DNA from: an uncultured Bacteroidales bacterium | GTDB lineage: Bacteria; Bacteroidota; Bacteroidia; Bacteroidales; VadinHA17 | DNA: 64,000 bases | Reading direction: 5' to 3' | Assembly: GCA_963789985.1 (NCBI GenBank) | Contig: CAWBNA010000019.1 | Location: 400,464-464,463 of the forward strand | In this document: positions 21,272 to 55,679 of the stretch, in pieces | Layout of the letters: every line of letters starts with the position of its first letter | Position numbering within the stretch: the first letter of the stretch is position 1 | Made by a program: the position numbers and the translations under genes | Notes under the pieces: model-generated | Seen by the model: only the letters and a program-made list of their open reading frames with translations | Told to the model about the DNA's origin: nothing | The model's database searches: none

Positions 21272-21297
21272 AAAATCAAAATTATTTACACATGAAA
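21272..21297 (+). promoter_or_regulatory. 26-nt start-proximal motif AAAATCAAAATTATTTACACATGAAA shared with leader copies A and B
   Basis: Exact 26/26 match to the reverse complement of 58387-58412, and 25/26 to the copy A equivalent. Includes the rhaA ATG. Confidence 0.7.
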
Positions 21298-22557: not shown

Positions 22558-22596
22558 TTGTGAAATTTTCATTCATCATATTTTGAGAGAATTAAA

Positions 22597-30976: not shown

Positions 30977-30989
30977 GTTCCGGCCATAC

Positions 30990-34259: not shown

Positions 34260-34268
34260 CGCAGGTTT

Positions 34269-34946
34269 TTACAGCTTTTTCCCCGGAAATAGTTTCCCTT
34301 CTGAAAGGGTCAGCTGAACTCCCATTTTATTTGCAAGATCCTTTGAATGTGTTGCAAGGAGAAGAGTGATCCCGTAGTCTTTGTTCATCCGGACAAGAAG
34401 ATCTCCAAGAGCGTTGGTGTTCTTTTCATCAAGCGATCCTGTAGGTTCGTCTGCCAGCAGGAGAGAAGGCTTGTTTGCAAGGGCCCTGACAAGTGTGGCG
34501 CGCTGAGCCTCGCCTCCCGAAATCTGAAGGGGATATTTATCTGCCAGTCCTGAAATACCAGTCGTTTCCATCAGCTTCAATGAATCATTGACCTTTTGCC
34601 TGAACTCGGAATCTGGCGTTTTTGATGCAATAAGAGGAAGTATTATATTTTCCCTGACGGTAAGATAAGGAAGAAGAAGATGATCCTGGAATACGAAGCC
34701 GATGTTTTTGTTCCTGTAGCGGGCTGATTCATCAGAGTCATAATTAAGGATTGAGACACCCCTGAACAGTACATCACCGCTGTCGGGCCTGTCGAGCAAC
34801 CCTATAATATTCAAAAGGGTTGTTTTTCCTGAACCCGACGGACCTGACACTGAAACCGAATCACCTTCATTAAGAGTAAGGTTAAGATCACTCAGAACAA
34901 TACCTCTCTGGTGATAAGATTTTGACACATTATTTAACTGTAACAT
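34269..34946 (-). CDS. ABC transporter ATP-binding protein (LolD/MacB type)
   Basis: Start moved to ATG 34946 (MLQLNNVSKSY). Walker A GPSGSGKTT, signature ISGGEAQR, Walker B LLLADEPT. Confidence 0.9.
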   Translation of the reverse strand: MLQLNNVSKSYHQRGIVLSDLNLTLNEGDSVSVSGPSGSGKTTLLNIIGLLDRPDSGDVLFRGVSILNYDSDESARYRNKNIGFVFQDHLLLPYLTVRENIILPLIASKTPDSEFRQKVNDSLKLMETTGISGLADKYPLQISGGEAQRATLVRALANKPSLLLADEPTGSLDEKNTNALGDLLVRMNKDYGITLLLATHSKDLANKMGVQLTLSEGKLFPGKKL

Positions 34947-36237
34947 TTTCAGCAGTTTTTGAATACAAACCGGCAAGTCCCTCCGACATCCTTTCAAGCG
35001 ACATTTTCTGCCTGACATTTTTCTTGCCTCTGATACTGAGCTGTAAAAGTAACTCTTTATTTGTTAATACTTTATGAAGGCGTGAAGCAAGCTCAGATAC
35101 CGTATCAGGTGAATAGGTTACCCCTCCTCCTGTTTTTTCAACAATTTCAGGGAACGACCCTGTTGCGGGCTGGACGACGGGAACGCCTGCACTGTTGGCT
35201 TCCAGAAGATACAATCCGTACCCGTCATACTTGTGCACCGGAACGCTGATTAAATCGACATTGCGGAAAAATTCCATCTTTCCGTCTCCCTGGAATTCCG
35301 GATATATTTTTACGCTTTTGGCTATCCCGGCTTCCCTGAGCTTTCTCAGCTGAGCTGAAACAAATGTCCTGTCAGTTCCGGTAAAACCGCCGCATATATT
35401 CAGCTTAAGGTCCGGAATCAGACCATTCCTTTTCAGCTCAATAAATGCATCCACAAGCTTGTCAAATCCGTTATTGTAGTTAACCCGGCTGAAGTATCCG
35501 ATCGCGGGTGATCGTGGAACTGAATCAGGCTCAATATCAAATTCAGGATCATATCCCAGCGGAACAACCATGATATTTTCACCGCTGATCCCGGTTTTGC
35601 TCATGAAGAGATCCTTGTAATAATTGCTTGGCGTGACGAACATATCGACATGAACAGCTTCACGCGAAATCATTTTCCAGGCATTTGAGCGGAAAGGTTC
35701 CGCCATCTCATCTATCCAGTCATCCTCATTAAGCAGGGAGCAGACAACCTTTACATCAATCCTCTTCTTAAGCTGCCGGGCCAGACCAAGAATAAGTGCA
35801 TTTGAAAGATGAATAATATCAGGCTTACCATCGTTAAGGAGGTATTTTACAAGCCTGTCGACCTCTGCCTTTCTGAACGCATTGTCGCCCTCTATCATGC
35901 TGATTGTAAGCTCTTCATATCCTTCAGGATTTGTAGTACCCGCCTGCTTTGCAGCAAACTTCAGTAACAGCGGGGAATTGAAAAACTTATCAAAAACTGC
36001 AGGCATGTTATTCAGAAATCCAACCTTTTCTCTCAGGTACATTGAAATTGCACCGAAAAAAACGTTCCTGTCAAAGTTGTTACCTGCCGTGGTTTTATCG
36101 GGAGGAAGGTAAAGCGGTATTGCCCTGGCGGTCATCCCAGGGACCTTGCGGATAGCTCTTATATAGATCATATCACGGTAACAGTTCCCGCAATAAAATG
36201 AGCCTCCTGATCCTGTAATAAGATATACTATTTTCAT
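34930..36237 (-). CDS. glycosyltransferase family 4-like protein with N-terminal CxxC
   Basis: Start moved to ATG 36237 (MKIVYLITGSGGSFYCGNCYRD). The C-terminal half is GT-B/GT4-like (GLYLLEANSAGVPVVQPATGSFPEIV). The upstream part of the track ORF is a translated repeat. Confidence 0.7.
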   Translation of the reverse strand: MKIVYLITGSGGSFYCGNCYRDMIYIRAIRKVPGMTARAIPLYLPPDKTTAGNNFDRNVFFGAISMYLREKVGFLNNMPAVFDKFFNSPLLLKFAAKQAGTTNPEGYEELTISMIEGDNAFRKAEVDRLVKYLLNDGKPDIIHLSNALILGLARQLKKRIDVKVVCSLLNEDDWIDEMAEPFRSNAWKMISREAVHVDMFVTPSNYYKDLFMSKTGISGENIMVVPLGYDPEFDIEPDSVPRSPAIGYFSRVNYNNGFDKLVDAFIELKRNGLIPDLKLNICGGFTGTDRTFVSAQLRKLREAGIAKSVKIYPEFQGDGKMEFFRNVDLISVPVHKYDGYGLYLLEANSAGVPVVQPATGSFPEIVEKTGGGVTYSPDTVSELASRLHKVLTNKELLLQLSIRGKKNVRQKMSLERMSEGLAGLYSKTAENVTVK

Positions 36238-36407
36238 CCTGACTTTTTTCTCTGTGTCACCCTGTGACTTCTCTGTGGATCTCTGTGTAACAATAAAAAG
36301 TACACACTGATCCTGTAATAACATATATTATATTCATTTTGACATTTTTCTCTGTGTCACTCTGTGACTTCTCTGTGGATCTCTGTGTAACAAAAAACGT
36401 ACACAGA
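36208..36407. repeat. 100-bp tandem duplication (2 units, roughly 11 mismatches per 100 by eye) carrying phased CACAGAG heptads and a duplicated gene start
   Basis: Unit 1 is 36208-36307 and unit 2 is 36308-36407. Each has four CTCTGTG/CCCTGTG heptads at 10-11 bp spacing (36250, 36260, 36271, 36281 and 36350, 36360, 36371, 36381). Each also has a copy of the glycosyltransferase start (MKIVYLITGS versus MNIIYVITGS). Confidence 0.9.
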
Positions 36408-36410
36408 GGA

Positions 36411-37529
36411 TTATTTTTTTCCGAATGCAAGCAGCCTTCCGTCTTCAGTCAGAAAATAAAACCTGTCCCTGGTCACCGCCGGGGAGCTGTTCACTGGGGT
36501 GCCTGCATTAAAGCTCCATATTTTCTTTCCATCCTGTAAATTAAGGATATAAATATGCCCGTCGGCACTGCCAAAGATAACCTTCCCTGGTGTGATCACG
36601 GCAGAACCATTAATTTTTCCGTTTGTTCTGAATTTCCATTTTAACTTGCCGGTAGCCAGATCATAACAATACATATACTTATTCTCATTACCCACGACCA
36701 CCATGTTTTTCCCAACCGCCGGTACGCCAAGGATTGAGCCGGATGTAGCATTTGCCGGCACGTTCCAGACCATCTTCCCTGTCAGCATGTCAATGCAATA
36801 CAGGTTTCCGTCATAGTCCCCAAAGCAGGCTTTCCCGCCAGAAAGGGCAGGAGAGGAGGCAATATAAACACCTACCTGGATCGTGTCCTTCTGCCTGCCG
36901 GAATAGGCGTCTACTATTCTTAAAACGCCATCACATCCTCCAAAGACAATATCATTATTTGCAACAGCAGGTGTTCCATTGATATAATTTTCAGTTTCAA
37001 CCTTCCATAGGAGTCTTCCGCTCGATGGGTCAACCGAATGGAGGAAATAATCGTAACTGCCGATTATTATTCCCGATTTTTTTCCTATCGTCCACGAATT
37101 TGCTGATCCGACAATCTGATTATCAGTCATGTATTTCCAGGCCAGTTTTCCGGTGTTTTTGTCAATTGCCTGCAGCGATCCGTCATTGAACCCGACTATT
37201 ACCCTGTTGCCATAAACAAGAGGAGGAGATTCAGCTGCAGTTCCGCCTTCATACTGCCATCTTATTTTTCCGTTTATTCCGACGGCAATAACTGAACCTT
37301 TATCATTTCCGAAAATTATCAAACCGGAACTGATGACAGGCGAAGATTCTGTCTTGCTTCCTGTTGGCAGACTCCAGATCAGGGAAGGTGATGACGGCAG
37401 TTCCATGGTTGTGAATCCCGACAGGTCGGGTTTCCCCCTGAACACAGGCCATTCCTGATCAGTAGTCTGTGAAAATGCAGATATGGAAATTACAACCATG
37501 ATCAATATCAGCCTGATACGCTTTCTCAT
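36411..37529 (-). CDS. PQQ/BamB-like beta-propeller repeat protein (paralog P2), secreted
   Basis: 372 aa with a signal peptide, then EWPVFRG. Blade motifs TGKLAWKY, SGRLLWKV, TGKMVWNV, TGKLKWKF. ATGA overlap with the upstream Fe-S gene. Confidence 0.8.
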   Translation of the reverse strand: MRKRIRLILIMVVISISAFSQTTDQEWPVFRGKPDLSGFTTMELPSSPSLIWSLPTGSKTESSPVISSGLIIFGNDKGSVIAVGINGKIRWQYEGGTAAESPPLVYGNRVIVGFNDGSLQAIDKNTGKLAWKYMTDNQIVGSANSWTIGKKSGIIIGSYDYFLHSVDPSSGRLLWKVETENYINGTPAVANNDIVFGGCDGVLRIVDAYSGRQKDTIQVGVYIASSPALSGGKACFGDYDGNLYCIDMLTGKMVWNVPANATSGSILGVPAVGKNMVVVGNENKYMYCYDLATGKLKWKFRTNGKINGSAVITPGKVIFGSADGHIYILNLQDGKKIWSFNAGTPVNSSPAVTRDRFYFLTEDGRLLAFGKK

Positions 37530-38593
37530 TTCCCTCTGATTTTATCAAAGTGACCCAGCGCTCCTGTCGGGCAGATATCCACGCATATATCAGCAGAAGC
37601 AGTCAGAATATCTTCAAAATCTTCCGTAAGAGGTTCAGATATCATCGAAACGAATCCCCTGTTTATGAAGCAGAGAGAAGGCTCATCCTTCTTATCGCCG
37701 CAAACCCGGACACATAGTCCGCATTTTATGCATTTGGCATTTTCAAATATAAGTCCGGTCTTCCGGCTGATCTTTTTAAAGACAGGGGCGCTGACAAATT
37801 TCCCCTTTGGATCGCTCAGTTCATATTTCCCTGCCAGTTCCCTCAGCCGGCAATTCTCGGCAGCCCTGCAGTCGCAATGCATGCAGCTTCCGGCTTCAGA
37901 GGCTGCGGACGAAAAGCTGTTTATCTCCCTGTGACGGATTATATTGTCTTTACACTCCTTCAGCCACTCCCTCTGCTCGCTTTCATCAAGACGTCCGATC
38001 CGTGAAGAAAACTTTTTACGCACATCTGCGGGCACATGATATTTTGAAATTCTGTTTCCATCGTCAGGATTTATATTTCGGTAAAGAAACATCCTGATAT
38101 TCCTGATTGAAACCGGAGAGTCAATTTTCTTCCTCCGGCAGGCATTTTCGCAGAAAGCCCGGCAATTAACACACTTAAGCTCATTTCCATTAATTTCTGA
38201 ATGAAGAAGCTCAGCAGCATCGTCTGTCCTGCCTGCAATCAGCAATCTGTTCATCAATGGTATATTATAACCCTCCGGACATACAATCCTGCATTGCGCC
38301 TCGCATTCAGCCCTGTGTTCCGAAAGAAGGAGCATAACTGCCTTCTTTCTCATGCTGATCACTTCTTCCCCCGAAGCGTCAATATCCATCCCCTCCTGGA
38401 CAAGAGCCGAGCACGATGGAATAAAGCTGTTTTTTCCCCTGTCTTTCACCATGCAGACCATGCAGGAGGAATAATGTGGCAAACCATCGTGGTGGCAAAG
38501 AACAGGAATCTCTATTCCCGCCTTCACTGCCGAATTGAGTATTGTCTGACCTTCTTCTGCCTCAATCCCGATATTATCTATCCTTATCTTCAT
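37526..38593 (-). CDS. 2Fe-2S/4Fe-4S iron-sulfur protein resembling the N-terminal ferredoxin part of HydA/NuoG, without a catalytic domain
   Basis: 355 aa. N-terminal plant-type 2Fe-2S fold (EIPVLCHHDGLPHYSSCMVCMV), His/Cys cluster EHRAECEAQCRIVCP, then CVNCRAFCENAC, CMHCDCRAAENC and CIKCGLCVRVC. No H-cluster or molybdopterin motifs. Confidence 0.7.
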   Translation of the reverse strand: MKIRIDNIGIEAEEGQTILNSAVKAGIEIPVLCHHDGLPHYSSCMVCMVKDRGKNSFIPSCSALVQEGMDIDASGEEVISMRKKAVMLLLSEHRAECEAQCRIVCPEGYNIPLMNRLLIAGRTDDAAELLHSEINGNELKCVNCRAFCENACRRKKIDSPVSIRNIRMFLYRNINPDDGNRISKYHVPADVRKKFSSRIGRLDESEQREWLKECKDNIIRHREINSFSSAASEAGSCMHCDCRAAENCRLRELAGKYELSDPKGKFVSAPVFKKISRKTGLIFENAKCIKCGLCVRVCGDKKDEPSLCFINRGFVSMISEPLTEDFEDILTASADICVDICPTGALGHFDKIRGK

Positions 38594-41009
38594 CTTTAAA
38601 ATTCACTGTTTCAACAGCTTTTTCCGGACATACCACCCTGCAGTTGTAGCATTTTGTGCAGAGATCCTGATCGATCTCATGCTTCTCATATGGTCTGAAT
38701 GCGATTGCATTAACCGGGCATTCCTGGGAGCATTTTGTACATCCGGTGCATTTATCTGTAATTCTGTATCTTATAAGGTCCCTGCATCTCTTTGCAGGAC
38801 ACACTCCTCCAGCGTGGGCTTCATACTCCTCCCTGAAGTATTTCAACCCTGTAAGAACCGGATTGGGCGCTGTTTTCCCAAGTCCGCACAGACTGCCGTT
38901 CTTTACCTGTATGCAAAGCCGTTCAAGATCATCAATTTCACCGGGCATTGCCTTTCCCTGACTGAGCCGTGTCACTATGTCAAGCATCAGCTTTGTCCCG
39001 ACCCTGCAGAAGGTGCATTTTCCGCAAGACTGTTTATGAGTAAACTCAAGGAAGTACTTTGCCATGTCGACCATGCAGTCAGTATCATCGAGAACCACCA
39101 TGCCACCTGAGCCCATCATGGCGCCCATTCTTGTAAGCTCTTCATAATCGACAGGAGTGTCAGAGAGCGCTGAAGGGATACATCCTCCCGAAGGGCCTCC
39201 TATCTGCACTGCTTTAAATGACCTTCCGGGAGCAACTCCGCAGCCTGTCTTTTCAACTATATCTTTTATTGTCGTACCCATAGGCACCTCAATGAGTCCT
39301 CCTTTCAACACTTTGCCTGCCAGGGCGAATACTTTTGTGCCCTTGCTTTTTTCTGTACCGATTGCACTGAAAGCCTTTGCTCCGTTATTAATAATCCACG
39401 GCACAAGTGCAAGCGTTTCAACATTATTTACAAGAGTCGGGTGATCTTTATAGCCCTTAACGGCAGGGTAGGGAGGCCTCAGATGCGGAGTTCCCCTTTT
39501 TCCTTCAAGTGAGGCAATAAGTGCCGTCTCCTCACCGCATACAAAGGCGCCTGCTCCCTCAAAAACCTCGATATCAAAAGAAAATCCTGAACCAAGTATG
39601 TCCATTCCTGTAACCCTTTTTTCCAGGCATAATCTGAGTGCATTCCTGATCCTTGAAACTGCAAGGGGATATTCGGCTCTTATATAGAAAATGCCTTTGC
39701 CGGCACCGGTGGCATATCCGGCAATAAGCATTCCTTCAATTACCCTGAATGGAAATGATTCCAGAATCATCCTGTCCATAAAAGCTCCCGGGTCGCCTTC
39801 GTCACCATTACAGACAACATATTTCGGTTTACCTTCAGATCCGGATGATATTTCCCATTTCCTGCCGGTTGGAAATCCGGCACCGCCACGGCCCCTTAAG
39901 CCGCTTTCTTTTATTGACTCAATTACCGACGTGCGGGATAAATCAAGCACCTTCTTCAATGCTTTGAATCCGTCCAGAAGCTCATATTCAACGAATGAAT
40001 CAGGCGACATAATGCCGCTGTTAAGTGTTGCAATATGTATCTGAGCGCTAAGGAAATTATTTAAATTTTGTTCCCTGACCCCTTCCGGCAGATTCACGGG
40101 ACTGTAAAGCATGTCATCCGACAGGAAAGTGTCGGCAAAATTATTCAGTCTGAACTGAAATCTTTTGCTCAAAGATGCCGGCTTTAAATGTTTAAGCAAT
40201 ATCTCTTCAACCTGGTCCTTTCTGACATTTGTATATCTTGAAACGCCATTGTGCGGGTCAACAATCTCAAGAAGCGGAGTCTGACTGCAAACGCCGACGC
40301 ATCCAACCGGTTTAACCCTGATGTTCAGATCATAATATTCCCTGATATCATTAAGCGTTGCCAGTATCTCCCTGCTTCCTCCGGCAACACAACATGATCC
40401 AAGACCTATACGTACTTCAGCATCAAAATCATCCCTGCCGTCGTGTTTTATTTCTTCCTGATGTTTGGCATGCGTACTAAGGAAATTATTTACGATCTCA
40501 TTGACCTGTGTTGGTTTTACATGTCCGTAAGTCTTTCCGTCGATCTGAACCACGGGTGCAAGAGTGCAGCAGCCCAGACATGCCACTTCCTCAATTGAGA
40601 AAAGATTATCAGGTGAACTGTTACGTTCACCGGTGATCCCCAGATCTCTTTTAAAAGCTTCTGATATAAGCTGAGAACCCTTTACGTGGCATGCTGTACC
40701 GGCACATATTTTTATTGTATGAAGTCCTGATGGAATGTGTCTGAACTGGGAATAGAAAGTGGAAACTCCCGATATCTGACCAGGCGTGACTTCAGAAATC
40801 CTGCATATATGCTTCAGGGCTTCCGAAGGCAGGTAATTAAGTCTTTTCTGGACTTCCTGCAGCATCAGGATCACTTTGTCGCTGCATGTGCCTGTCTCCT
40901 TAATAACAGACTCCACAACTGACCTGATTTCATCGTCAGTAAGAACGTCACTGCCACAAGTGCAGGTTTTAATATCTTTTTTTTCTTTTTTCAAATAGCT
41001 GAAATGCAA
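38574..41009 (-). CDS. NuoE + thioredoxin-like 2Fe-2S + NuoF + 2x[4Fe-4S] fusion flavoprotein (HndABC/HydB-like NAD(P)H module)
   Basis: 811 aa. NuoE-like CAGTACHVKG...ACLGCCTLAP, a second 2Fe-2S-like GLGSCCVAGG...GCVGVCSQTP, NuoF motifs GRGGAGFPTGRKW, VVCNGDEGDPGAFMDR and SCGKCTFCR, and C-terminal CTGCTKCSQECP and CTKCYNCRVVCP. Confidence 0.85.
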   Translation of the reverse strand: MHFSYLKKEKKDIKTCTCGSDVLTDDEIRSVVESVIKETGTCSDKVILMLQEVQKRLNYLPSEALKHICRISEVTPGQISGVSTFYSQFRHIPSGLHTIKICAGTACHVKGSQLISEAFKRDLGITGERNSSPDNLFSIEEVACLGCCTLAPVVQIDGKTYGHVKPTQVNEIVNNFLSTHAKHQEEIKHDGRDDFDAEVRIGLGSCCVAGGSREILATLNDIREYYDLNIRVKPVGCVGVCSQTPLLEIVDPHNGVSRYTNVRKDQVEEILLKHLKPASLSKRFQFRLNNFADTFLSDDMLYSPVNLPEGVREQNLNNFLSAQIHIATLNSGIMSPDSFVEYELLDGFKALKKVLDLSRTSVIESIKESGLRGRGGAGFPTGRKWEISSGSEGKPKYVVCNGDEGDPGAFMDRMILESFPFRVIEGMLIAGYATGAGKGIFYIRAEYPLAVSRIRNALRLCLEKRVTGMDILGSGFSFDIEVFEGAGAFVCGEETALIASLEGKRGTPHLRPPYPAVKGYKDHPTLVNNVETLALVPWIINNGAKAFSAIGTEKSKGTKVFALAGKVLKGGLIEVPMGTTIKDIVEKTGCGVAPGRSFKAVQIGGPSGGCIPSALSDTPVDYEELTRMGAMMGSGGMVVLDDTDCMVDMAKYFLEFTHKQSCGKCTFCRVGTKLMLDIVTRLSQGKAMPGEIDDLERLCIQVKNGSLCGLGKTAPNPVLTGLKYFREEYEAHAGGVCPAKRCRDLIRYRITDKCTGCTKCSQECPVNAIAFRPYEKHEIDQDLCTKCYNCRVVCPEKAVETVNFKDEDKDR

Positions 41010-42712
41010 TAAAGGTTATTTCTTCCTCTTATATAAATGTTCTTGTCCGAAAAGGCAGGAGTACAGTCAGCGGGCTCACCTAAAGGAGATTCAGATACAA
41101 GTTTGAATTCAGGCCCTGCATTTACAATATGCATCACACCGCTTCGGTCGAGCATCCACACTTTATTATCTGCAATAACAGGCGATGCATAAAACTGATC
41201 CGTAAAGTAGTGTGTCCAGAGTGTATCGCCCTTCTGTGAATTATAACAAGCCACATCCCCGGTGCCCGTGCAAAGGAACAGGTAATTGTCGGTTGCAACC
41301 GGACTGGAAACATCTGGTGTGAAAGTATTATCCTGCCATACTATTGAAGGACCAGGACCGGGTTTTACTGCTGCCAGGCGTGAATAATCAGTAACTGCAT
41401 AAACCAGGCTGCTGTTGACCGCAAGAGATGGGGCAACATCCCCTGTCAGTACCTCTATCGACCAGAGAGCTTTACCGGTACGCGGATCAAATGAAGTGAC
41501 TTCAGGATTACCGTTAATAATCACCTGCGGCACCCCATTGAAATTTGCCAGCACAGGCGATGCCCAGGTCGCTTTTCCACTCCTTGGCGTTTCCCATTTC
41601 AATTCCCCTGAGTCTGTATCAAAGCCCATCATTGAAATCTTTTCAGTAGCATCGAATTTGACAATCAGTAATCCTTCAAAAATTACAAGTGAACAGGAAT
41701 ACCCATAAGCGTTTTTCGGAATCCCTATGTTTTTTGCCCATTTTTTATTCCCGTCCATACTTAAGCATATCAGGTTTCCGTTCGCAAAGATGGCGCATAT
41801 GGATTTTCCGTCTGTGGCGGCTGAAGGTACAGCAATGCCTGCATCGCTGCTGGTTTCCGGAGGCACTGAAGGCTCTCCCGTGATGCCTGAGGCGGACGAA
41901 CTCCATTCTATCTTTCCTGAATTTTTATCTATGCAATAGACCTCACATGATTTACCATCCGAGCCTGTCACGAAAAGTTTGTCGCCCCATATAACCGGGG
42001 AGCTTTTACCATTTTTGGGAATCTGAATCTTCCATTTGATGTTTTTGCCATTTTCACCGTTCCATTCGGTAGGGAACCCTGAACCTCCCGCGATTGCCCT
42101 GCCGTCCTGGCCTCTGAAAAACGGATAGTTTACAGGATCAGGTTTGTAGGTGTCGGCTTTTGAAGCAAGATTTTTCTTTTTTCCTGTTTTCTTCTCAATC
42201 TTTTCTTCAGCTCTTACCGTGTTTCTGCCTGAAAGGTCGGGAAGGTTGTTCCTCAGAACAAACGAGGTGATTATGCCACCTACGGTCAGTACAGCTACTG
42301 ATCCTGCCAGATATCTTGCATATTTTGCATTTGTATTCACCTGGTCCTGATGCTCACCCGGAACTGATGGAATTGTCCTTTCACTTCCTGCAATTATTCT
42401 CTGACATAAAATAAAGATTGCAGCTCCGGCCAGCAACAGGTACGAACCGGTTTCAACCTGCCGCCTTGATGAAAAGTATGCCTTCCTTGCCATAAGGTCG
42501 AGCGCTCTTATCTGTTCAGCCCTGGCAGTATTTTCAACATCCTTGTCATATTCTTCTTTAATAGTTACAATTGCCTGATTATCCAGCGGATCCATGGTTT
42601 TTAACTGAATCAGACTGTAAAACATAGTTAAGGCAACGACCAGTGTAAATACACCTGCACCTATACTGATTCCTCTGATTGTCTTAATATCTTCTTCGTC
42701 AGGCTTTTTCAT
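40991..42712 (-). CDS. membrane-anchored PQQ/BamB-like beta-propeller protein (paralog P3)
   Basis: 573 aa with three predicted N-terminal TM helices, then NYPFFRG and propeller blades (SGKIEWSS, SGELKWET, TGKALWSI, KGDTLWTH). Overlaps both neighbouring genes. Confidence 0.75.
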   Translation of the reverse strand: MKKPDEEDIKTIRGISIGAGVFTLVVALTMFYSLIQLKTMDPLDNQAIVTIKEEYDKDVENTARAEQIRALDLMARKAYFSSRRQVETGSYLLLAGAAIFILCQRIIAGSERTIPSVPGEHQDQVNTNAKYARYLAGSVAVLTVGGIITSFVLRNNLPDLSGRNTVRAEEKIEKKTGKKKNLASKADTYKPDPVNYPFFRGQDGRAIAGGSGFPTEWNGENGKNIKWKIQIPKNGKSSPVIWGDKLFVTGSDGKSCEVYCIDKNSGKIEWSSSASGITGEPSVPPETSSDAGIAVPSAATDGKSICAIFANGNLICLSMDGNKKWAKNIGIPKNAYGYSCSLVIFEGLLIVKFDATEKISMMGFDTDSGELKWETPRSGKATWASPVLANFNGVPQVIINGNPEVTSFDPRTGKALWSIEVLTGDVAPSLAVNSSLVYAVTDYSRLAAVKPGPGPSIVWQDNTFTPDVSSPVATDNYLFLCTGTGDVACYNSQKGDTLWTHYFTDQFYASPVIADNKVWMLDRSGVMHIVNAGPEFKLVSESPLGEPADCTPAFSDKNIYIRGRNNLYCISAI

Positions 42713-43985
42713 CAGCAGTATTATTATTTATGTGCACCGGGCAATACCGGAAACATCGTCCGCAACTGTAGCATTTGCCTTTATGCGGCACATAACCGGT
42801 TCTCCTTGACCTGGTGGTAAGAGAAACGAGGCTGAGTCCGAACGAAAGTCCGAGGAAAAGCCCGACCCATAAAGATCCGTTCCTGAACCGTCCGGCTATT
42901 TTCAGCTCTTCTTCAAACAATTCCTTTTCGGTCTTTCCTGCTTCCCTGAAAGCCACAGCGGCCTTTGAAACAGCGGGAATGCCTTTTTCCTTTTCTGCCC
43001 TGATCTCCCTTGCCAGCTGAACTTTGCTGTTAAGCCCTGAAAGGGCAGGAGCGAGGTTCCTGAACAGGATTGCTCCTCCGGCAGCGAACAGAGGTATAAA
43101 CAGGATATATATGATAAATCTCCTTCTTTCCATGCGAGGTTCTCCGGAAGGACGGGAAACGTCGGATGGTAATATTGCATCATAAGGGCATACATCTTCA
43201 CAGAGACGGCAGTTTGTACATTCTGCGGGAGTAATTGTAAGATGCCTTGAAGAGAACCGTGAAAATATATTAAGAAGGACACCGTACGGACAGAAGTATC
43301 TGCAATACGGCCTGTTTATGAATATGCCTGCCACAAGCAGCAATGAGCCGAATATTATCATTGTATAAGGCGCATCGAGGCGGAAAATACCCACAAAAGG
43401 ATCGTACCTGCAGATCAGAAACTGGCTCCCGGTAGCTGCCGAAAGCACAGACAGACCAAGATAGACAAACGGGACAGAGATCATTACCGATTCGACAGCT
43501 TTGGGCAGCTTCACAGGACGAAAGCCTGTAAGCTCCTGGATTGCACCGAACGGACAAACCCCGGCACAGAAGACCCTGCCGAATGCCAGAGCAAATATTA
43601 ATGGTATGATAAAAAACAAAAGCGCAGTAAGCGGAATGGCATAATTCTTATTGAACAGCGCAAGGGCGACATTCTGGAGTGATCCGACTGAACAGATACA
43701 TCCTTCCCTGTAAAACCCGAAATATGCGAGCGAGAATACAGAAAGCCAGACAATCCCTTCCCTTGAACGTTTTTTCAGCGCTAACCATGATGCAAGCGAT
43801 AACGCGCCAACGAGAACTGCCAGGTCGATATAATTCCACACCGGGGATCTCTGGAGAGGCAGCTGGTGGTCGGGATAGACATAGCCTGACTCAAATTCCG
43901 GACGCGGAAACCGGTCCTGCGCCACGAGGACTGCATGCCATCCGATCAGCAGGAAAATCAAAATATATGGTAGTTTTTTCTTCAC
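42699..43985 (-). CDS. NapH/MauN-type integral membrane 4Fe-4S protein
   Basis: 428 aa. Two CX3CP motifs (GRVFCAGVCPFG, RPYCRYFCPYG), two ferredoxin motifs (CTNCRLCEDVCP, CYSCGRCFRYCP) and multiple TM helices. Confidence 0.8.
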   Translation of the reverse strand: MKKKLPYILIFLLIGWHAVLVAQDRFPRPEFESGYVYPDHQLPLQRSPVWNYIDLAVLVGALSLASWLALKKRSREGIVWLSVFSLAYFGFYREGCICSVGSLQNVALALFNKNYAIPLTALLFFIIPLIFALAFGRVFCAGVCPFGAIQELTGFRPVKLPKAVESVMISVPFVYLGLSVLSAATGSQFLICRYDPFVGIFRLDAPYTMIIFGSLLLVAGIFINRPYCRYFCPYGVLLNIFSRFSSRHLTITPAECTNCRLCEDVCPYDAILPSDVSRPSGEPRMERRRFIIYILFIPLFAAGGAILFRNLAPALSGLNSKVQLAREIRAEKEKGIPAVSKAAVAFREAGKTEKELFEEELKIAGRFRNGSLWVGLFLGLSFGLSLVSLTTRSRRTGYVPHKGKCYSCGRCFRYCPVHINNNTADEKA

Positions 43986-43994
43986 TCTGTTTTT

Positions 43995-44148
43995 TAATTA
44001 ACCCACCCCTGACCCCTTCAGGGAGGGGAACTTTATGATAATGCTTTTGCTTTTTACTTTTGCCTTTTGTCTTTTGTCTTTAATTAACCCACCCCTGACC
44101 CCTCCCAGGAGGGGATCATCAGGTTTTTACTTTTATCTTTTGTCTTTA
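43995..44148. repeat. composite intergenic element, two tandem copies (TTAATTAACCCACCCCT + GC hairpin + CTTTTG-periodic T-rich tract)
   Basis: Copy 1 is 43995-44080 and copy 2 is 44081-44148. Both begin TTAATTAACCCACCCCTGACCCC and end in (C)TTTTG repeats. Confidence 0.9.
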
Positions 44149-44696
44149 GGCAAATACTGCATCTTATATGGCACCCTGGATATAGCTTCTGACGGGCAGT
44201 TCCTTGCTATCGCGCATTCATTGCAACGAACACAAAGACCCTGGTTTATCTGCAGATAAAGAGATCCGTTGCCGAAATCATTGCATCCCTTGACACATTT
44301 TCCGCATGCGTCGCACAGCTTCTCATTTATTGTATATTCAAAATAGGGTTCTTCCACAAATTTCCTTGTTATAGCTCCCGTGGGACACATCTGGTTTTCG
44401 GCCCCGGTACTGATAGTCGTAACGCCCTGCCTTAGGAATCCGCCGCACAGATCGCAGTATCCGCACATCACAAAAGCGTGGACACACTTTACAGCTGATG
44501 GTGTCAGCACACACTTTGTCTTACATTGCCCGCACTGCGTACACTTATGAGGATCGATCTGCCATACATTTCCTGACGCAGATACTTTCCCCGACAGGAA
44601 TATTGGTACTGCTATGACAGGAGCTGCGATAAGAATCCTTCCTGCATTGCGTACAAAATCCCGTCGTGACTGATATTTGTTTTTATCTTCCTTCAT
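44133..44696 (-). CDS. Tat-exported polyferredoxin (NapG-like)
   Basis: 187 aa with twin-arginine signal SRRDFVRNAG followed by a hydrophobic stretch. Cys clusters CTQCGQCKTKC, CGYCDLCGG, CDACGKCVKGC and CVRCNECAIARNCP. Confidence 0.8.
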   Translation of the reverse strand: MKEDKNKYQSRRDFVRNAGRILIAAPVIAVPIFLSGKVSASGNVWQIDPHKCTQCGQCKTKCVLTPSAVKCVHAFVMCGYCDLCGGFLRQGVTTISTGAENQMCPTGAITRKFVEEPYFEYTINEKLCDACGKCVKGCNDFGNGSLYLQINQGLCVRCNECAIARNCPSEAISRVPYKMQYLPKDKR

Positions 44697-44708
44697 AGAG
44701 AAATCAGT

Positions 44709-44909
44709 TTAATACTTGCTGCAGTCAATTCTCCCTCTGCAAATGCCATTACCAGGACATGTCGAACAGTCTTTCGTCGCAACAACCCTGTTGCCAAGAA
44801 AATATGCAACAAATGCCAGCAAACCCAGCAATCCGGCCTGAACCGATTTTACAATGAAGCTTTTTCTGTCGATCTGCATAGGATTAATTTTAAAATTATT
44901 TTTTCCCAT
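44709..44909 (-). CDS. small single-TM protein with C-terminal 4-Cys motif
   Basis: 66 aa with a possible Tat-like RK motif (DRKSFIVKS), a TM (AGLLGLLAFVAYFL) and the tail CSTCPGNGICRGRIDCSKY. It sits 12 nt upstream of the Tat ferredoxin gene. Confidence 0.45.
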   Translation of the reverse strand: MGKNNFKINPMQIDRKSFIVKSVQAGLLGLLAFVAYFLGNRVVATKDCSTCPGNGICRGRIDCSKY

Positions 44910-44987
44910 TTCTTGCCATAGTTTTCAGAAATCCAAATCCTTTTAGGTTAAAATGCACAATTTGAAAAGTCTCTGATGCGAGTGTGT

Positions 44988-45905
44988 TCATAATTTTCTT
45001 TTAAATAAATAAAGTGTCGAATCAGCGCTGTTTATGGCATAAATTGTTTTGCCATCAGCTGAAGCGACATCCAGCGGTACGGAAGGAACAAAATTATTAT
45101 TTGACGAAACGAATTCAATAAATTCTCCTTCAGGCCCCAGGATTTTTATCCTGTTCAAACCTTTCTCTGCAGTCACAATACCCTGCGGTATAAGTGCAAA
45201 ATGCGCAGGATTGCAGCAACCGCAGAACTTGCCCGGCGCTGTTCCCGGTTCACCGAATTCGGCAATCTTTTTCCCGTCCGTCGTCCATTTCTCGATCCTG
45301 TGATTCCCTGTATTTGCAATGAAAAGAGTCGAACCGGAAAGAGCGACATCAAAATAAGGGCTGGGTATCAGGAATTTCTCATCAGACTGTCCTATCATGG
45401 TCTTCAGTTCCCCGTTCTTTTTCAGCAAGAAGACCTTTTTGCTTCCTGCATCAGCAAATGCAATAACATCTTTCCCGGCCGTAACGGAAGTAATGAGGCT
45501 ATTATCTTCATATGGTCCCCATTCGGCAATTAATTTTCCTCCTGTTGAAGCAAGCAGAATCGTTCCGGCAGTCGAGGCGAAGATTGTATCGCCTGAAACA
45601 GCAAGTGATGTAATCTTCGAATCTGTTTTAAGGTTCCATTTTTCACTAAGGTCAGTGTTGAGCGACCTTATAAATGAATTGCCTGCCAGAAAAACAGTTC
45701 CATCGTCTGAAACAGCTACAGAAGAAGTTTTTCCTCCCGTCAAATCTATTTTTCTGACAACTTCCCATCTGTCATAATAAGAAGTTTCCTGTGAAGCTGC
45801 TTGTTCACTTTTTTTGATTTTTATATTTGATGCATCATAAATGATATATCCCATAAATGCCAGGATAATCAATAATGCAAGGAAAGCTGTAAGTTTCTTA
45901 TTCAT
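44988..45905 (-). CDS. NHL-repeat six-bladed beta-propeller protein, N-terminally anchored
   Basis: Start moved to ATG 45905 (MNKKLTAFLALLIIL), giving an ATGA overlap with the upstream gene. NHL-like repeats (LFIANTGNHRIEKW, AEKGLNRIKILGPEG). Unusual Cys cluster KFCGCCNP. Confidence 0.7.
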   Translation of the reverse strand: MNKKLTAFLALLIILAFMGYIIYDASNIKIKKSEQAASQETSYYDRWEVVRKIDLTGGKTSSVAVSDDGTVFLAGNSFIRSLNTDLSEKWNLKTDSKITSLAVSGDTIFASTAGTILLASTGGKLIAEWGPYEDNSLITSVTAGKDVIAFADAGSKKVFLLKKNGELKTMIGQSDEKFLIPSPYFDVALSGSTLFIANTGNHRIEKWTTDGKKIAEFGEPGTAPGKFCGCCNPAHFALIPQGIVTAEKGLNRIKILGPEGEFIEFVSSNNNFVPSVPLDVASADGKTIYAINSADSTLYLFKRKL

Positions 45906-47368
45906 TGGTTTTGTTTTTTTCCTATGAAAAGGCAAAGCAAATTTCTTGAATCCCTCATAACAAGGTAGTTGCCTGCTAATGCCATCGGTCCCCAGGCCTC
46001 AACCCCTTTAATTATCCTGTGCTGTGTGATCAGTGAAGCCTGTGATCCGTCAATCCTGAACAAATATAAATTTGCATTATCATCCAGCAAAAGCAATTTG
46101 TCATCTTTCATTATATAAGGTCCCAGACCTCTTCCGAATCTCATGTCCTTTCCGCTGCTCCAGAGAGGCTTTTTCAGGTCCGACCTGTTGTAGCAGACAA
46201 GTTGCTTCTTCAGCGGCCCTGCATTCTCAGGCATTACTGTCCATATAAAATCGCCCTTCGGTATAGGGGTCTGCTGGTCGCTTGAAATTCCCTCCATTGG
46301 CTTGTGTGATTCCAGAAGGGTTGCTGAATAAGCTGATCCGTTCAGGCTGATCCTTATTCTGGCGCCTCCTGCGCCGTAACTTCCAAATACCGCGATCTCA
46401 TTATTGCCAAGGTAAACAGGTGATGCGGCTGTAGTTGCCGGGTTCCATTCTTTTGTTTTCCAAAGCAGCTTTCCTGTGTCGTCACCATCAGCGGCCACGC
46501 CAACAACTCCTCCAATGGCATTATAAACGTACATTCTCCTTCCATGTATTTCCATTGGTATAATTGATCCATGCGACATTCTCAAAGAATCAGGATTAGG
46601 GGTCTTCCATATTACCTTCCCGTCAGAGCATCTGACGCCAATCATAAGCGCTTTCCCTCCGGGCGCAAGTACCGCTACATCATTGTCAATAAGCGGACAT
46701 TGACCCGTATAAAAATCCGGAGTGATTCTCCCTTTTATTTTACCTGCAATTCCAAACTCCTTCTCCATATCGATCCTCCAAAGGAGGTTTCCATTAAGCG
46801 GATCAAGACACATTACATGCGATCTTGGGCCAATTGAGACAAGATACTTATCAGTCACTGCCGGTATTGTTCTTGAGTATCCATGGTTACGCTTGAGATC
46901 AACGTTGTACCACCTTCTCCAGAGTTCCAGCCCTGACTTGAGTGAAAAGCAGCGCAGCATGTCGGCTTTCTTTCTTTCATTGTAATCCATTAGATAAACC
47001 CTTCCATTCAGCACTGCCGGACCCGCATAACCTTCACCGAGCGTTACTTTCCACATAACAGGAGTACCGGCTGTATCCCAGGATTCTGCAATTTCAAAAG
47101 TGTCTTTACTGATGTTATCAAAATCACTTCCCCTGAATCTTGGCCAGCTTCCGGGGACCAATCCATCAAATGCAGCCAGAGTGTCAAAAAACTCACCAAT
47201 AATTACACTGTCAGTCCTTGGCACAGTTTTAGGACGGTTATCCATGCCGGGAACGCGCAGAACGATATCAGCGGGATAATGATTACCGGCAAACCACCAG
47301 ATCAGGGCCCCTGATAAAAGAACGGCAGTGATGCCTGTGAACAGTGTATTATTTTTCTTAAGTGTCAT
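45902..47368 (-). CDS. PQQ/BamB-like beta-propeller repeat protein (paralog P4), N-terminally anchored
   Basis: 488 aa with an N-terminal TM, then SWPRFRG. Blade motifs SGLELWRR, NGNLLWRI, DGKVIWKT, TGKLLWKT. Confidence 0.8.
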   Translation of the reverse strand: MTLKKNNTLFTGITAVLLSGALIWWFAGNHYPADIVLRVPGMDNRPKTVPRTDSVIIGEFFDTLAAFDGLVPGSWPRFRGSDFDNISKDTFEIAESWDTAGTPVMWKVTLGEGYAGPAVLNGRVYLMDYNERKKADMLRCFSLKSGLELWRRWYNVDLKRNHGYSRTIPAVTDKYLVSIGPRSHVMCLDPLNGNLLWRIDMEKEFGIAGKIKGRITPDFYTGQCPLIDNDVAVLAPGGKALMIGVRCSDGKVIWKTPNPDSLRMSHGSIIPMEIHGRRMYVYNAIGGVVGVAADGDDTGKLLWKTKEWNPATTAASPVYLGNNEIAVFGSYGAGGARIRISLNGSAYSATLLESHKPMEGISSDQQTPIPKGDFIWTVMPENAGPLKKQLVCYNRSDLKKPLWSSGKDMRFGRGLGPYIMKDDKLLLLDDNANLYLFRIDGSQASLITQHRIIKGVEAWGPMALAGNYLVMRDSRNLLCLFIGKKQNQ

Positions 47369-47498
47369 ACACCATCAGAAATCTCTATATCGTTTTTACC
47401 ATTAAATGGTTATCGAACAGATGGAAATACAATTCTTTTCGAAACCTGCCGAACGGTGTTCATTCGCACGGGCCTTGAGGCAAAAAATGTCACAGGAA

Positions 47499-48806
47499 TC
47501 ACCTGGCAACTCTGACACACTTTAACTGGTTTTGATCCCTGATAAGGAGCTTACCGTCCGCAAGCGCAAGGGGTGCCCAGTTTTGAGTCGAAAATCTTGG
47601 ATCTGCACCTGATGCTACAACAAGCAACTTTGCTGATGCAATGGGCTTAAAGGCTGATGGATCGGGCTCAATAAGGTACAAATTGTTACTGCCGTCGGTG
47701 CTGATCAGCAACCCATCGGCGAGAACCGAGCCACCCTTATCAAATAACGGAGATCTCCCTGTTTTCCATTTAATCTGGCCGTCAATACTCATACAAACCA
47801 GGCCGTCTTTTCTTTCGTTGGTTGTATATTGAGCATAAAAATAGCCGTTATAAAGAACCGGAGGTTGTGTATGCGCACCAAAATCAGCATTTTTATAAAG
47901 TTCTGTAACACCGTAGCTGCCATCCGCTTTTCTTTCAACCTTTATCATTGCAGCTCCGGCCTGGTATCCGCCTGTAAGCAGAACCCTGCCTTCACCGGCA
48001 TCAACTGCACTTGGCACCGGAATACGACATTGCCAGTTCGTATATTCCCAAAGGATCTTACCCGTAAGCGGATCAATTCCAACGACCTTACCTCCAGTGC
48101 CATTTTGTCCGAAGCCACCACCTTCTGAAGCGGTTATCATAACAATGTGATCCTTTCCGCCAACTTTTACAAACGACGGGCTGACATATCCTACAGGACC
48201 AAGAGCCGGAGTTTTCCATTTCACATTGCCGGTAAGTTTTTCATAAGCTACAACTCCCGCCTGTGGCGTCTGTGAAGCCAGAATGACCAGATCGCCATAA
48301 ACCAAAGGACACTGGGTAATTGCCCATCTCGGAATTTCACCACCGCCGAAATCAGTCCAGACGTTCTTTTTCCAGATTGGCTTGTGCGTGTTGATATCTA
48401 TACAATAAAGGTTTCCGTAAGGACCGCATGAATAAATCCGGTTACCGTCCAATGCCGGTACGCTTCGCGAGCCGGGAAACTGAACAGACCCTGGAGCATC
48501 ATAGCTGAACTTCCAAAGTTCTTTACCATTTGAAAGGTCAAAACATCTCATAATATCGCCAGCCTGGTCATTTCTGTCCAGTAAATAAACCTTACCGTCT
48601 TTGATAACAGGTCCGCCAAAACCGATTCCCACATTAGCCGTCCATAAAACTTCCGGACCCTGCTGAGGCCAGGAACGCATAATACCTTTCTGGTCCGACG
48701 CACTATTTCTGTTGGGTCCAAGATACTGGGGCCAGTCTTGGGAGTAGACATTTGTAATTCCAACTAATAAAACAGCCATCAAAACATACATCTTACTCTG
48801 TTTCAT
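47499..48806 (-). CDS. PQQ/BamB-like beta-propeller repeat protein (paralog P5), secreted
   Basis: 435 aa with a signal peptide, then DWPQYLG. DIMRCFDLSNGKELWKF parallels P4 DMLRCFSLKSGLELWRR. Further blades TGNVKWKT, TGKILWEY, DGQIKWKT. Confidence 0.8.
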   Translation of the reverse strand: MKQSKMYVLMAVLLVGITNVYSQDWPQYLGPNRNSASDQKGIMRSWPQQGPEVLWTANVGIGFGGPVIKDGKVYLLDRNDQAGDIMRCFDLSNGKELWKFSYDAPGSVQFPGSRSVPALDGNRIYSCGPYGNLYCIDINTHKPIWKKNVWTDFGGGEIPRWAITQCPLVYGDLVILASQTPQAGVVAYEKLTGNVKWKTPALGPVGYVSPSFVKVGGKDHIVMITASEGGGFGQNGTGGKVVGIDPLTGKILWEYTNWQCRIPVPSAVDAGEGRVLLTGGYQAGAAMIKVERKADGSYGVTELYKNADFGAHTQPPVLYNGYFYAQYTTNERKDGLVCMSIDGQIKWKTGRSPLFDKGGSVLADGLLISTDGSNNLYLIEPDPSAFKPIASAKLLVVASGADPRFSTQNWAPLALADGKLLIRDQNQLKCVRVAR

Positions 48807-49614: not shown

Positions 49615-49633
49615 TGTTGCAGTTTTGATTGGT

Positions 49634-50824: not shown

Positions 50825-50994
50825 TCGTAAAACCTTGTTAAAGCCTGGCGCAATTTAAAGAAAAAACAGGAAAAATTTTCCCATGATTTATTGATTAAAA
50901 TTTCCAGCTTATTTTGGTAAGAAATACCCGCGGTGCTCCGGCACCTCATTCAGGTCATTCCACCCGATGACAATTATATCATCTGCATGCTCCT

Positions 50995-53956: not shown

Positions 53957-53958
53957 AA

Positions 53959-54966: not shown

Positions 54967-54999
54967 CTGTAAATCTTAATTTATCTTTTTGTTATAAAG

Positions 55000-55617: not shown

Positions 55618-55656
55618 CCTGTTAAAAATTTTTAGCTGCAAAAATAACAAACAAGC

Positions 55657-55679
55657 TGACCAAATTGTTAAAATGGTCA
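55657..55679. promoter_or_regulatory. candidate TetR operator palindrome upstream of the tetR-emrA-emrB-tolC operon
   Basis: TGACCAAATTGTTAAAATGGTCA. The 6-bp arms TGACCA/TGGTCA are separated by 11 nt. It lies 40-62 nt upstream of the proposed tetR ATG. Confidence 0.35.

Follow-up and report, generated by a model that had tools for sequence, protein, structure and literature searches.

A stretch of 64,000 nucleotides (nt) from an uncultured Bacteroidales bacterium of the VadinHA17 lineage (GenBank assembly GCA_963789985.1, contig CAWBNA010000019.1, positions 400,464 to 464,463 of the forward strand; hereafter the window) contains a cluster of 14 genes, at 29618-48806, that appears to encode a redox system reaching over three compartments. 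The parts are known in kind: a flavoprotein core of the Bfu family, a membrane protein of the NapH/NosR superfamily, a polyferredoxin with a twin-arginine translocation (Tat) signal, and a MacB-like ATP-binding cassette (ABC) system. Their combination is new, and no published description of it was found in the open-access literature. We read the system as a periplasmic electron sink, an interpretation held with roughly even confidence, in which the Bfu core takes electrons from NADH, and probably from ferredoxin, for use at two periplasmic beta-propellers, P4 and the NHL protein.

In this scheme the Bfu core would oxidise NADH, probably together with reduced ferredoxin, in the cytoplasm. A remnant of the BfuA subunit would hand the electrons to the NapH-like protein at its cytoplasmic clusters; from there they would traverse the membrane to the periplasmic polyferredoxin and end at P4 and the NHL protein, where invariant His, Cys and Met residues of the former and a vicinal Cys pair of the latter look like a metal or thiol reaction site. 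Propellers that vary in copy number may bind or present the substrate, and a GT4 glycosyltransferase, an ABC ATPase and a duplicated FtsX permease could form an accessory module for maturation or export. The physiological role would be to serve fermentative anaerobes as a periplasmic electron sink. The new combination joins three elements: a Bfu core with a membrane and periplasmic Fe-S chain as its third partner, propellers that show no recognisable cofactor motifs where a terminal enzyme would be expected, and a dedicated ABC/FtsX-glycosyltransferase module.

A preliminary description of the locus had reported ten genes at 36411-48806 with no recognisable terminal enzyme, and had proposed that the propellers are the periplasmic partners of a cytoplasm-to-periplasm electron path. 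The proposal is supported by the co-conservation of the genes and by fusions of the NapH-like protein with one of the propellers, P3. The lack of a known catalytic partner was also borne out: NapA and other molybdopterin enzymes, NosZ, hydrogenase and formate dehydrogenase are absent from all 84 related loci. No CxxCH motif occurs in any of the 13 proteins scanned from P5 to FtsX in the window, and c-type cytochromes, sought as open reading frames (ORFs) with two or more such motifs, were not observed among the 84 loci. On the other hand, the cluster is wider than described. The glycosyltransferase, ABC, FtsX and P1 genes (29618-36324) are co-conserved with the core, and thus the system spans 14 genes rather than ten.

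Conservation of the gene cluster

A scan of one genome per species with the NapH-like protein yielded at least 577 relatives, and the best 80 were mapped. The window proteins were then mapped onto all ORFs of the loci, and adjacency was counted among 81 loci from other genomes, wherever the flank sufficed. The best 80 relatives are all from Bacteroidota except for one metagenome-assembled genome (MAG) of KSB1. The cluster is present in cultured Marinifilum fragile, Marinifilum flexuosum, Draconibacterium orientale, Labilibaculum sp. K2S, Gaoshiqia sediminis and Ancylomarina sp., so that the question of its role is directly testable. Judging by record names, the host lineages are anaerobes of digesters and sediments and Marinilabiliales. 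The NapH-like family comprises 402 clusters at 50% identity with E<1e-30.

The order P5 (one to five copies)-P4-NHL-small four-Cys protein-polyferredoxin-NapH-like-P3-NuoEF-HoxU-P2-glycosyltransferase-ABC, where NuoEF and HoxU denote the two Bfu proteins, holds down to approximately 45% identity. Propeller, NapGH-like and NuoEF-like genes do co-occur: their order is kept in 81 other-genome loci from Bacteroidota, KSB1 and Phycisphaerae. Upstream of the NapH-like gene, the neighbours are the polyferredoxin gene in 74 of 75 loci, the NHL gene in 69 of 71, P4 in 64 of 65 and P5 in 58 of 60. The downstream neighbours are P3 (68/70), NuoEF (53/57), HoxU (49/56) and P2 (51/56), and the accessory glycosyltransferase and ABC genes lie beside it in 38 and 39 of 53 loci, respectively. 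Such an arrangement far exceeds what chance would give. In comparisons with distant orthologues, identity is 56-60% for the polyferredoxin, 53-55% for NuoEF, 45-50% for the NapH-like protein and 42-46% for the BfuA-like protein. The corresponding values are 47% for the ABC ATPase, 41-46% for P4, 41-42% for the glycosyltransferase, about 36% for P2 and P3, and 25-33% for P5 and the NHL protein.

Two distant contigs carry much of the same set. A Phycisphaerae contig encodes P4, an NHL-like protein with the motif FPGCCNPV, the polyferredoxin, a fusion of the NapH-like protein with P3, NuoEF and a 512-aa BfuA-like protein, as well as the glycosyltransferase, the ABC ATPase, a 987-aa FtsX permease and two further propellers. 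A contig of 61% GC (L086) encodes the polyferredoxin, the fusion, NuoEF, a BfuA-like protein, the ABC ATPase, an 1183-aa FtsX permease and P2. Across phyla, therefore, the propellers and the Fe-S genes stay together with the ABC and FtsX genes and, in most cases, with the glycosyltransferase.

In the window, the ten ORFs from P5 to P2 are co-directional on the minus strand, and every coordinate reported for them was reproduced. The overlaps reported for the downstream genes were also recovered, namely 14 nt between the NapH-like gene and P3, 19 nt between P3 and NuoEF, 20 nt between NuoEF and HoxU and 4 nt between HoxU and P2. The P4 and NHL genes overlap by 34 nt if the latter begins at a TTG codon; the reported ATGA overlap at 45902/45905 (4 nt) is obtained with the ATG at 45905, which is the start of the public gene call (305 aa). 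Intergenic gaps are confined to P5/P4 (130 nt), NHL/66-aa protein (78 nt), 66-aa protein/polyferredoxin (12 nt) and polyferredoxin/NapH-like protein (147 nt). An Rfam search of the window gave no match. A scan for sigma-70 promoters and terminators gave counts near the shuffled expectation, where the sigma-70 consensus may not suit a host from Bacteroidota, whose promoters are expected to differ from the sigma-70 type.

Cytoplasmic and membrane Fe-S proteins

The 811-aa protein (NuoEF; 38574..41009, minus strand) had been described as a fusion of NuoE and NuoF forming a diaphorase-type module. The domain assignment stands (2Fe-2S_thioredx, Complex1_51K, NADH_4Fe-4S and two Fer4 domains), and so does the NADH flavoprotein. 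A plain diaphorase does not fit: residues 198-798 align end to end with the bifurcating-type subunits StnB (8oh5_B, 673 bits) and NfnB (9n5u_B, 670 bits), versus only about 335 bits for the non-bifurcating Nqo1, which is without the Bfu extensions. The Bfu family is defined by BfuB, with an FMN/NADH site and clusters B1-B5, and BfuC, with a 2Fe-2S cluster; an extra N-terminal 2Fe-2S site, a CPAKxC site and a C-terminal dicluster mark the bifurcating BfuBC core and are missing from non-bifurcating homologues (PMC9304861). All three line up between the 811-aa protein and StnB/NfnB, the C-terminal cysteines being those of 2x[4Fe-4S], and a NuoE-type 2Fe-2S_thioredx domain (BfuC) occupies residues 33-175. 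The protein thus has the BfuBC core with all of its clusters. It is predicted to be a bifurcating-type core of the Bfu family (HydBC/StnAB/NfnBC-type), arranged as a BfuC-BfuB fusion (NuoE, extra 2Fe-2S, NuoF/FMN, C-terminal 2x[4Fe-4S]) with FMN and six Fe-S sites, and it probably reacts with ferredoxin as well as with NADH.

The 355-aa protein (HoxU; 37526..38593, minus strand) was assigned as a 2Fe-2S/4Fe-4S protein, in agreement with its profile matches (Fer2_4 and a HydA/NuoG-type Fe-S region). Among solved structures, it is most closely related to the N-termini of 9bov_A, StnC (8oh5_C) and NfnA (9n5u_A). It keeps the 2Fe-2S site, the GltD-type 2x[4Fe-4S] and the HydA-type Fe-S region, and no FAD, NADP(H), catalytic or any other Rossmann domain was detected in it with Pfam and family profiles. 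Most of the BfuA-like orthologues are longer, about 520 aa, and have a GltD-type FAD Rossmann domain. These forms align to residues 5-287 and 443-671 of StnC, skipping the NADP(H) domain (288-442), and the catalytic C-terminal half is missing. As the BfuA remnant has no NADP(H) domain, the third substrate cannot be NADP+.

This bears on the possibility that the locus merely houses a soluble transhydrogenase of the Nfn/Stn type within a propeller cluster. The closest solved relatives are indeed StnABC and NfnABC, and BfuB of the Nfn type has been reported in Bacteroidetes (Schut et al. 2022, PMC9304861). However, a transhydrogenase of the Nfn-Bfu/Stn type has a BfuA subunit with both FAD and NADP(H) domains; the NADP(H) domain is missing from all BfuA-like forms examined, and the window protein has lost the FAD domain as well. 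Moreover, the Bfu genes overlap P3 upstream and P2 downstream, and their position is kept across phyla. We consider a transhydrogenase very improbable.

Compared with Stn/Nfn-Bfu enzymes (StnABC 8oh5, NfnABC 9n5u; PMC9304861), the module shares BfuC and BfuB with their FMN, N-terminal 2Fe-2S, CPAKxC and C-terminal 2x[4Fe-4S] sites, and a BfuA-like partner with the 2Fe-2S, the GltD-type diclusters and the HydA-type Fe-S region. It differs in the fusion of BfuC with BfuB, in the loss from BfuA of the NADP(H) domain and the C-terminal half (in the window also of the FAD domain), and in its partner, a membrane Fe-S protein with a periplasmic chain instead of a soluble catalytic domain. The module thus derives from Stn/Nfn-type enzymes, with the NapH-like protein as its only evident partner. 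Membrane-bound Bfu complexes have been predicted only as Mbh-type and Nuo-type, and 17 BfuB clades were left without a function (PMC9304861). None of the host genera of the cluster is named in the supplement of that paper.

In two loci a Bfu or propeller gene is joined to its neighbour. One ORF in L047 (15423-18263, 946 aa) consists of the BfuA-like protein, a linker, a transmembrane (TM) helix and P2, and one ORF in L004 (16424-18943, 839 aa) of P2, a hydrophobic linker and the glycosyltransferase. Topologically, both make sense: either these are true fusions, by which a cytoplasmic part is tethered to a periplasmic one, or stop codons were lost in the MAG assemblies.

The NapH-like protein (428 aa; 42699..43985, minus strand) has 15 cysteines and about seven hydrophobic segments, and matches Fer4_5 twice (59.5 bits versus a cut-off of 22) and Fer4. 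Its motifs are two CX3CP, GCxC, two CxxCxxCxxxCP flanking a TM hairpin, and a conserved N-terminal RFPxPEFxSGY. Among 29 diverse sequences, the invariant positions are C140/C144/P145, C228/C232/P233, C256-C266 and C405-C415. The protein thus has the hallmarks of the NapH/NosR superfamily, two CX3CP motifs in Fer4_5 and two CxxCxxCxxxCP motifs. However, it falls short of the cut-offs for NapH/MauN (TIGR02163, 59.7 versus 213.05 bits), NapH (NF007013, 50.1 versus 234) and NosR (NF046105, 54 versus 1000). The NapH label given to it earlier is therefore sound for the Fer4_5 architecture, but not for family membership. An AlphaFold2 model (pLDDT 85) has no neighbour in PDB at E<=0.001.

In the NapH-like family, proteins of approximately 1000 aa account for about ten of the top 150 representatives. 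Four of them were checked with Pfam (P0136, P0145, P0177, P0259; one from Phycisphaerae), and all four are fusions of the NapH-like protein with P3; two of the four were confirmed in loci L085 and L086. P3 (40991..42712, minus strand; PQQ_2, 89 bits) has three TM helices, and is predicted to be coupled to the NapH-like protein in the window too, because the two form one polypeptide in other genomes.

The Tat-signal periplasmic polyferredoxin (187 aa; 44133..44696, minus strand; signal SRRDFV) is the most conserved protein of the set. Out of its 17 cysteines, 16 are conserved, as is H73; this is enough for four 4Fe-4S clusters. The earlier NapG label holds for the Tat signal and the four-cluster cysteine pattern, but again not for the family, as the protein scores below the cut-offs of both MauM/NapG models (TIGR00397, 9.9 versus 178.85 bits; NF007012, 11.3 versus 269). 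The adjacent gene (44709..44909, minus strand) encodes a small protein of 66 aa with one TM segment and four cysteines, which has no family match in profile searches. An ORF of 55-80 aa with a TM segment and four cysteines is found between the NHL and polyferredoxin genes in most of the related loci. The distant ones have a twin-arginine-like RRxFL start, a TM segment and the pattern C-x5-C-x2-C-x6-C.

The pair resembles NapGH, NosGH and MauMN: a Tat polyferredoxin with cysteines of the four-cluster type stands beside a membrane protein with two CX3CP and two 4Fe-4S motifs, and the partners are periplasmic beta-propellers. Indeed, NosZ and the heavy chain of methylamine dehydrogenase are periplasmic beta-propellers. 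It differs in the sub-threshold scores, the extra N-terminal motif, the C-terminal TM hairpin and the propeller fusion or coupling, as well as in the NADH/ferredoxin input module and the absence of NapA, NosZ and MauAB from the locus. An ordinary quinol dehydrogenase of the NapGH/NosGH type, serving a known reductase (NapA, NosZ or another) encoded elsewhere, with the propellers as unrelated neighbours, would account for the CX3CP and 4Fe-4S motifs and the Tat polyferredoxin, which match the NapGH layout, and for the label "NosR/NirI family" given to homologues by JGI pipelines. It does not agree with the large distance to the NapH, NapG and NosR thresholds, with the family-specific N-terminal motif and C-terminal hairpin extension of the NapH-like protein, with its covalent fusion to a propeller in other genomes, or with the absence of nap and nos genes from the 84 loci. 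We give this explanation only a slight chance.

Propellers and the transporter module

The preliminary assignment of PQQ_2-type propellers was confirmed by profile matches in P5, P4, P3 and P2. P4 (45902..47368, minus strand) is anchored in the membrane by its N-terminus and is the most conserved periplasmic protein without Fe-S motifs. Across 70 orthologues, 112 of its positions are conserved at 90% or more, compared to 28 in P5. They include K159-R-N-H162, Q223-C224-P, M264-S-H266, C140, C187 and C392. The invariant His, Cys and Met residues precede "xSP" motifs in the inner strands of successive blades, which, by the general geometry of propellers, would place the conserved residues at the rim of the central channel. 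P4 is a candidate reaction site. A P4 model from AlphaFold2 has pLDDT 78 and pTM (predicted template modelling score) 0.80, and was built from sequences at least 63% identical.

The NHL protein (44988..45935, minus strand; likely start ATG 45905) is membrane-anchored and appears to be a hybrid of NHL and PQQ-like propellers. C240, C241, N242 and P243, the vicinal Cys pair of the motif GCCNP, are conserved at 90% or more across 71 orthologues. The matches that bear on its earlier assignment are mixed. Residues 140-290 match the solved NHL domains of Thin (70 bits) and TRIM71 (52 bits) by phmmer, but there is no Pfam NHL match at E<=0.01. The N-terminal half resembles designed PQQ-like propellers, and the match to the NHL model of ScyF is weak (27.6 versus 350).

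P5 (47499..48806, minus strand; PQQ_2, 78.8 bits) is a secreted propeller of the eight-blade PQQ_2/BamB-like type with a signal peptide and no lipobox. It occurs in one to five tandem copies in the related loci, is approximately 28% identical to its Marinifilum orthologue and is a paralogue of P4 (141 bits). P2 (36411..37529, minus strand) is secreted and BamB-like (Beta-prop_ACSF4, 176 bits; PQQ_2, 139 bits; signal peptide), and its translation is coupled to that of the BfuA-like gene by an ATGA overlap. P1 (29618..30976, plus strand; PQQ_2, 68.6 bits) is a secreted propeller similar to P3 (151 bits) and convergent with the FtsX gene, a position shared by L020, L023, L026 and L089, the last with two copies.

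Several kinds of known chemistry were considered for these proteins and rejected. PQQ quinoprotein chemistry was rejected because of sub-threshold scores with the models of PQQ-dependent dehydrogenases (TIGR03075, TIGR03074), the best being 82 versus 480 for P2, followed by 50 for P5 and 44 for P3, with no match for P4. A copper site of the NosZ type was dismissed, since P5 and P2 have only three and two His residues and P4 has seven with two conserved, far below the need of a copper cluster. The analogy with MauMN and methylamine dehydrogenase was dropped, as no MauA-like or MauB-like match was found. BamB itself is not matched at the family level either: the best score with TIGR03300 is 147.9 versus 285.2 (P2), and no lipobox Cys is present at any propeller N-terminus. 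BamB and tetrathionate hydrolase, both eight-bladed propellers of the PQQ_2 type without PQQ, are nevertheless what P4 and P5 match best in fold and sequence. The differences from these two are an identity of about 14%, the lack of a lipoprotein signal, and the invariant polar, Cys and His residues that P4 has of its own. Searches of PDB sequences with P5, the NapH-like protein, the NHL protein and FtsX gave generic or very weak matches only.

Downstream of P2, the cluster continues with a GT4-family glycosyltransferase gene (34930..36324, minus strand; Glycos_transf_1 and Glyco_transf_4), which adjoins P2 in 38 of 53 loci and is also present in the Phycisphaerae cluster. Its probable start is MKIVY at approximately 36237, and the N-terminal CxxC (C45 and C48) is conserved. 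The ABC ATPase (34269..35018, minus strand) is nearest to the LolD (202 bits), FtsE and YbbA models, all below threshold, and is found both in the Phycisphaerae locus and in L086. The FtsX-type permease (30990..34259, minus strand; 1089 aa) has two FtsX domains and two large periplasmic domains, with weak matches to ADOP and YbbP. In every locus that is long enough (L021, L023, L026, L089), the ABC gene is followed by an orthologue of this permease of about 1085-1095 aa, and beyond it such loci contain one or two convergent P3-like propellers. In addition to ABC_tran and the two FtsX domains, we looked for MacB_PCD, which gave no match, and for an adaptor or an outer-membrane duct, none of which is conserved with the cluster. 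In one locus (L088) the glycosyltransferase, ABC and FtsX genes stand alone beside a transposase, and this was treated as a rearrangement.

A similar set of parts is seen in nos clusters, which combine the NosZ propeller, electron input by NosGH/NosR and the NosDFY ABC system for cofactor assembly. Here too, a propeller in the periplasm goes together with Fe-S electron input from the membrane and with an ABC system conserved alongside, a likeness that serves as a lead only. The ABC system here is FtsX/MacB-like, not an ABC-2 NosFY with NosD, and a cupredoxin domain and a copper chaperone are absent.

The same module allows a different explanation, in which the MacB/LolCDE-like ABC-FtsX pair, the GT4 glycosyltransferase and the BamB-like propellers maintain the envelope through biogenesis or export, and the Fe-S proteins and the Bfu core supply a periplasmic thiol or metal reductant, in the manner of DsbD, CcoG or MsrPQ, with no catabolic substrate. 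The co-conservation of the glycosyltransferase, ABC and duplicated FtsX genes with the Fe-S genes across phyla agrees with it, as do BamB as the best structural match of the propellers, the vicinal Cys pair of the NHL protein together with the small four-Cys protein, the dispensability of the Bfu module in one sublineage (see below) and a glutathione-peroxidase gene following the cluster in Phycisphaerae. However, a bifurcating-type flavoprotein with six clusters and a periplasmic ferredoxin with four seem heavy equipment for housekeeping; no protein with a thioredoxin fold and no DsbD-like or Msr-like protein was seen among the window proteins profiled; the ABC system lacks a conserved partner of the membrane-fusion or outer-membrane kind; and the lipobox is absent from all propellers. 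We therefore regard an envelope-maintenance machine as unlikely, though worth keeping in view.

Under the electron-sink interpretation, the acceptor may be a soluble sulfur, disulfide or metal(loid) compound, which is a guess on a weak basis. The most specific version of that interpretation is a respiratory or electron-sink complex of a new kind. Its Bfu module would send electrons to the periplasm over an Fe-S path that uses neither haem nor quinone, and P4 with the NHL protein would be a propeller enzyme of a new class. The metal or thiol centre of this enzyme would be assembled with help from the ABC/FtsX-glycosyltransferase module and would reduce a soluble environmental acceptor. This version is put forward tentatively and is rather doubtful as a whole; that the terminal chemistry is new in category is likewise less likely than not, though a real possibility.

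Electron flow and flanking DNA

Several points weigh against the electron sink. The catalytic role of the propellers is a prediction, and the outward direction of the electron flow is one that we infer. The same applies to the transmembrane route of the NapH type, the NapH-like protein having no solved homologue. The nearest folds of P4 are a scaffold, BamB, and the cofactor-less tetrathionate hydrolase, at approximately 14% identity. The strong co-conservation of the MacB-like ABC system and the glycosyltransferase is not explained by a simple reductase model. In L086, which has high GC, the Fe-S, Bfu, ABC, FtsX and P2 genes are present, and P4 and the NHL gene are not adjacent to them. Finally, four loci (L020, L021, L023, L026) have neither of the Bfu genes (NuoEF and BfuA-like) and keep the rest, with P2 directly after P3. 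Thus the flavoprotein module is an optional input and the supply of electrons from NADH is not essential; quinol is a possible substitute in this lineage.

The direction could also be the reverse, with a periplasmic donor oxidised at the propellers and electrons passed inward, by way of the polyferredoxin and the NapH-like protein, to the Bfu core, which would bifurcate them to NAD+ and ferredoxin. Reversibility is a property of Bfu enzymes, several of which run in the bifurcating direction with a third substrate of middle potential (PMC9304861), and the 811-aa protein has kept every cluster specific to bifurcation. However, such a path requires a periplasmic donor near -400 mV, and nothing here has the Ni, Fe, Mo or W cofactor domains on which the known enzymes for H2, formate and CO depend. 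Further, the hosts, as far as can be judged from lineage names, are mainly fermenters with surplus reductant, and a reductive path fed by quinol is easier to reconcile with the sublineage that has no Bfu genes. Inward flow accordingly seems to us quite improbable.

If the outward path to P4 and the NHL protein is true, it would add a new class of partners for the bifurcating enzymes of the Bfu family, and would be, as far as the literature found shows, the first case of a Bfu core connected to the periplasm. The PQQ_2/BamB-like propellers, a very large family of which almost nothing has been characterised, could thereby gain a catalytic role. In the most specific version given above, the system would also represent a major unrecognised disposal of electrons from NADH and ferredoxin in fermentative Bacteroidota, KSB1 and Phycisphaerae of sediments and digesters. 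The NapH-like family, itself abundant, is found in the anaerobes that dominate polysaccharide breakdown in these habitats.

The leader of the glycosyltransferase gene contains a 100-nt tandem duplication (36191..36390, strandless; two copies, 87% identical) that repeats the leader and approximately the first 12 codons. The repeat core, CACAGAGAAGTCACAG, is found only in the close relatives L001 and L004 and once elsewhere in L020. The 16-mer at the core is present twice in the window versus 0.05 expected. This may be a small mobile or regulatory repeat.

The operon is tolerant of interruption at gene boundaries. Single insertions were observed in L055, L063, L067, L072, L059, L048, L060 and L083, among them small selfish ORFs of the four-helix-bundle or GxxExxY type between the Bfu genes; others encode an 1190-aa restriction-modification-like protein, an McrB-like ATPase, a TonB receptor and a glycogen phosphorylase. 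When the 249 neighbouring ORFs without an assignment were clustered, the recurrent groups viewed were asparagine synthase, arylsulfatases and LytS/LytTR pairs. A histidine kinase of the LytS type and a LytTR response regulator lie amid the P5 copies in L008, L015, L016, L082 and L083, the KSB1 locus being among these, and may regulate the system in some lineages.

Directly upstream of P5 and on the same strand, the window contains a set of efflux genes (48937-55680) encoding TetR, HlyD, a major facilitator superfamily (MFS) transporter, an outer-membrane efflux protein, a 396-aa FtsX protein and an ABC protein. It was rejected as a part of the unit, as it is not conserved with the cluster. A similar set of TetR, adaptor, MFS and outer-membrane factor genes is found on the other side of the cluster in L089. 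Beyond P1 there are genes for an FG-GAP repeat protein (26039-27436) and a pair of VTC-domain and DUF4956 proteins (28066-29524), and a 648-aa ORF (23961-25907) without a Pfam family match. Genes of rhamnose utilisation (rhamnosidase, RhaA and an FGGY kinase) lie near the cluster at 16897-23964 of the window. Rhamnose genes also adjoin the glycosyltransferase-ABC-FtsX genes in L088 (13504-20420), where the transposase separates these from an unrelated MacB-type set. In seven loci of the Rikenellaceae type (L005, L011, L014, L018, L021, L023, L026), the cluster is flanked upstream, on the opposite strand, by two or three arylsulfatase genes in an array and by a gene for asparagine synthase.

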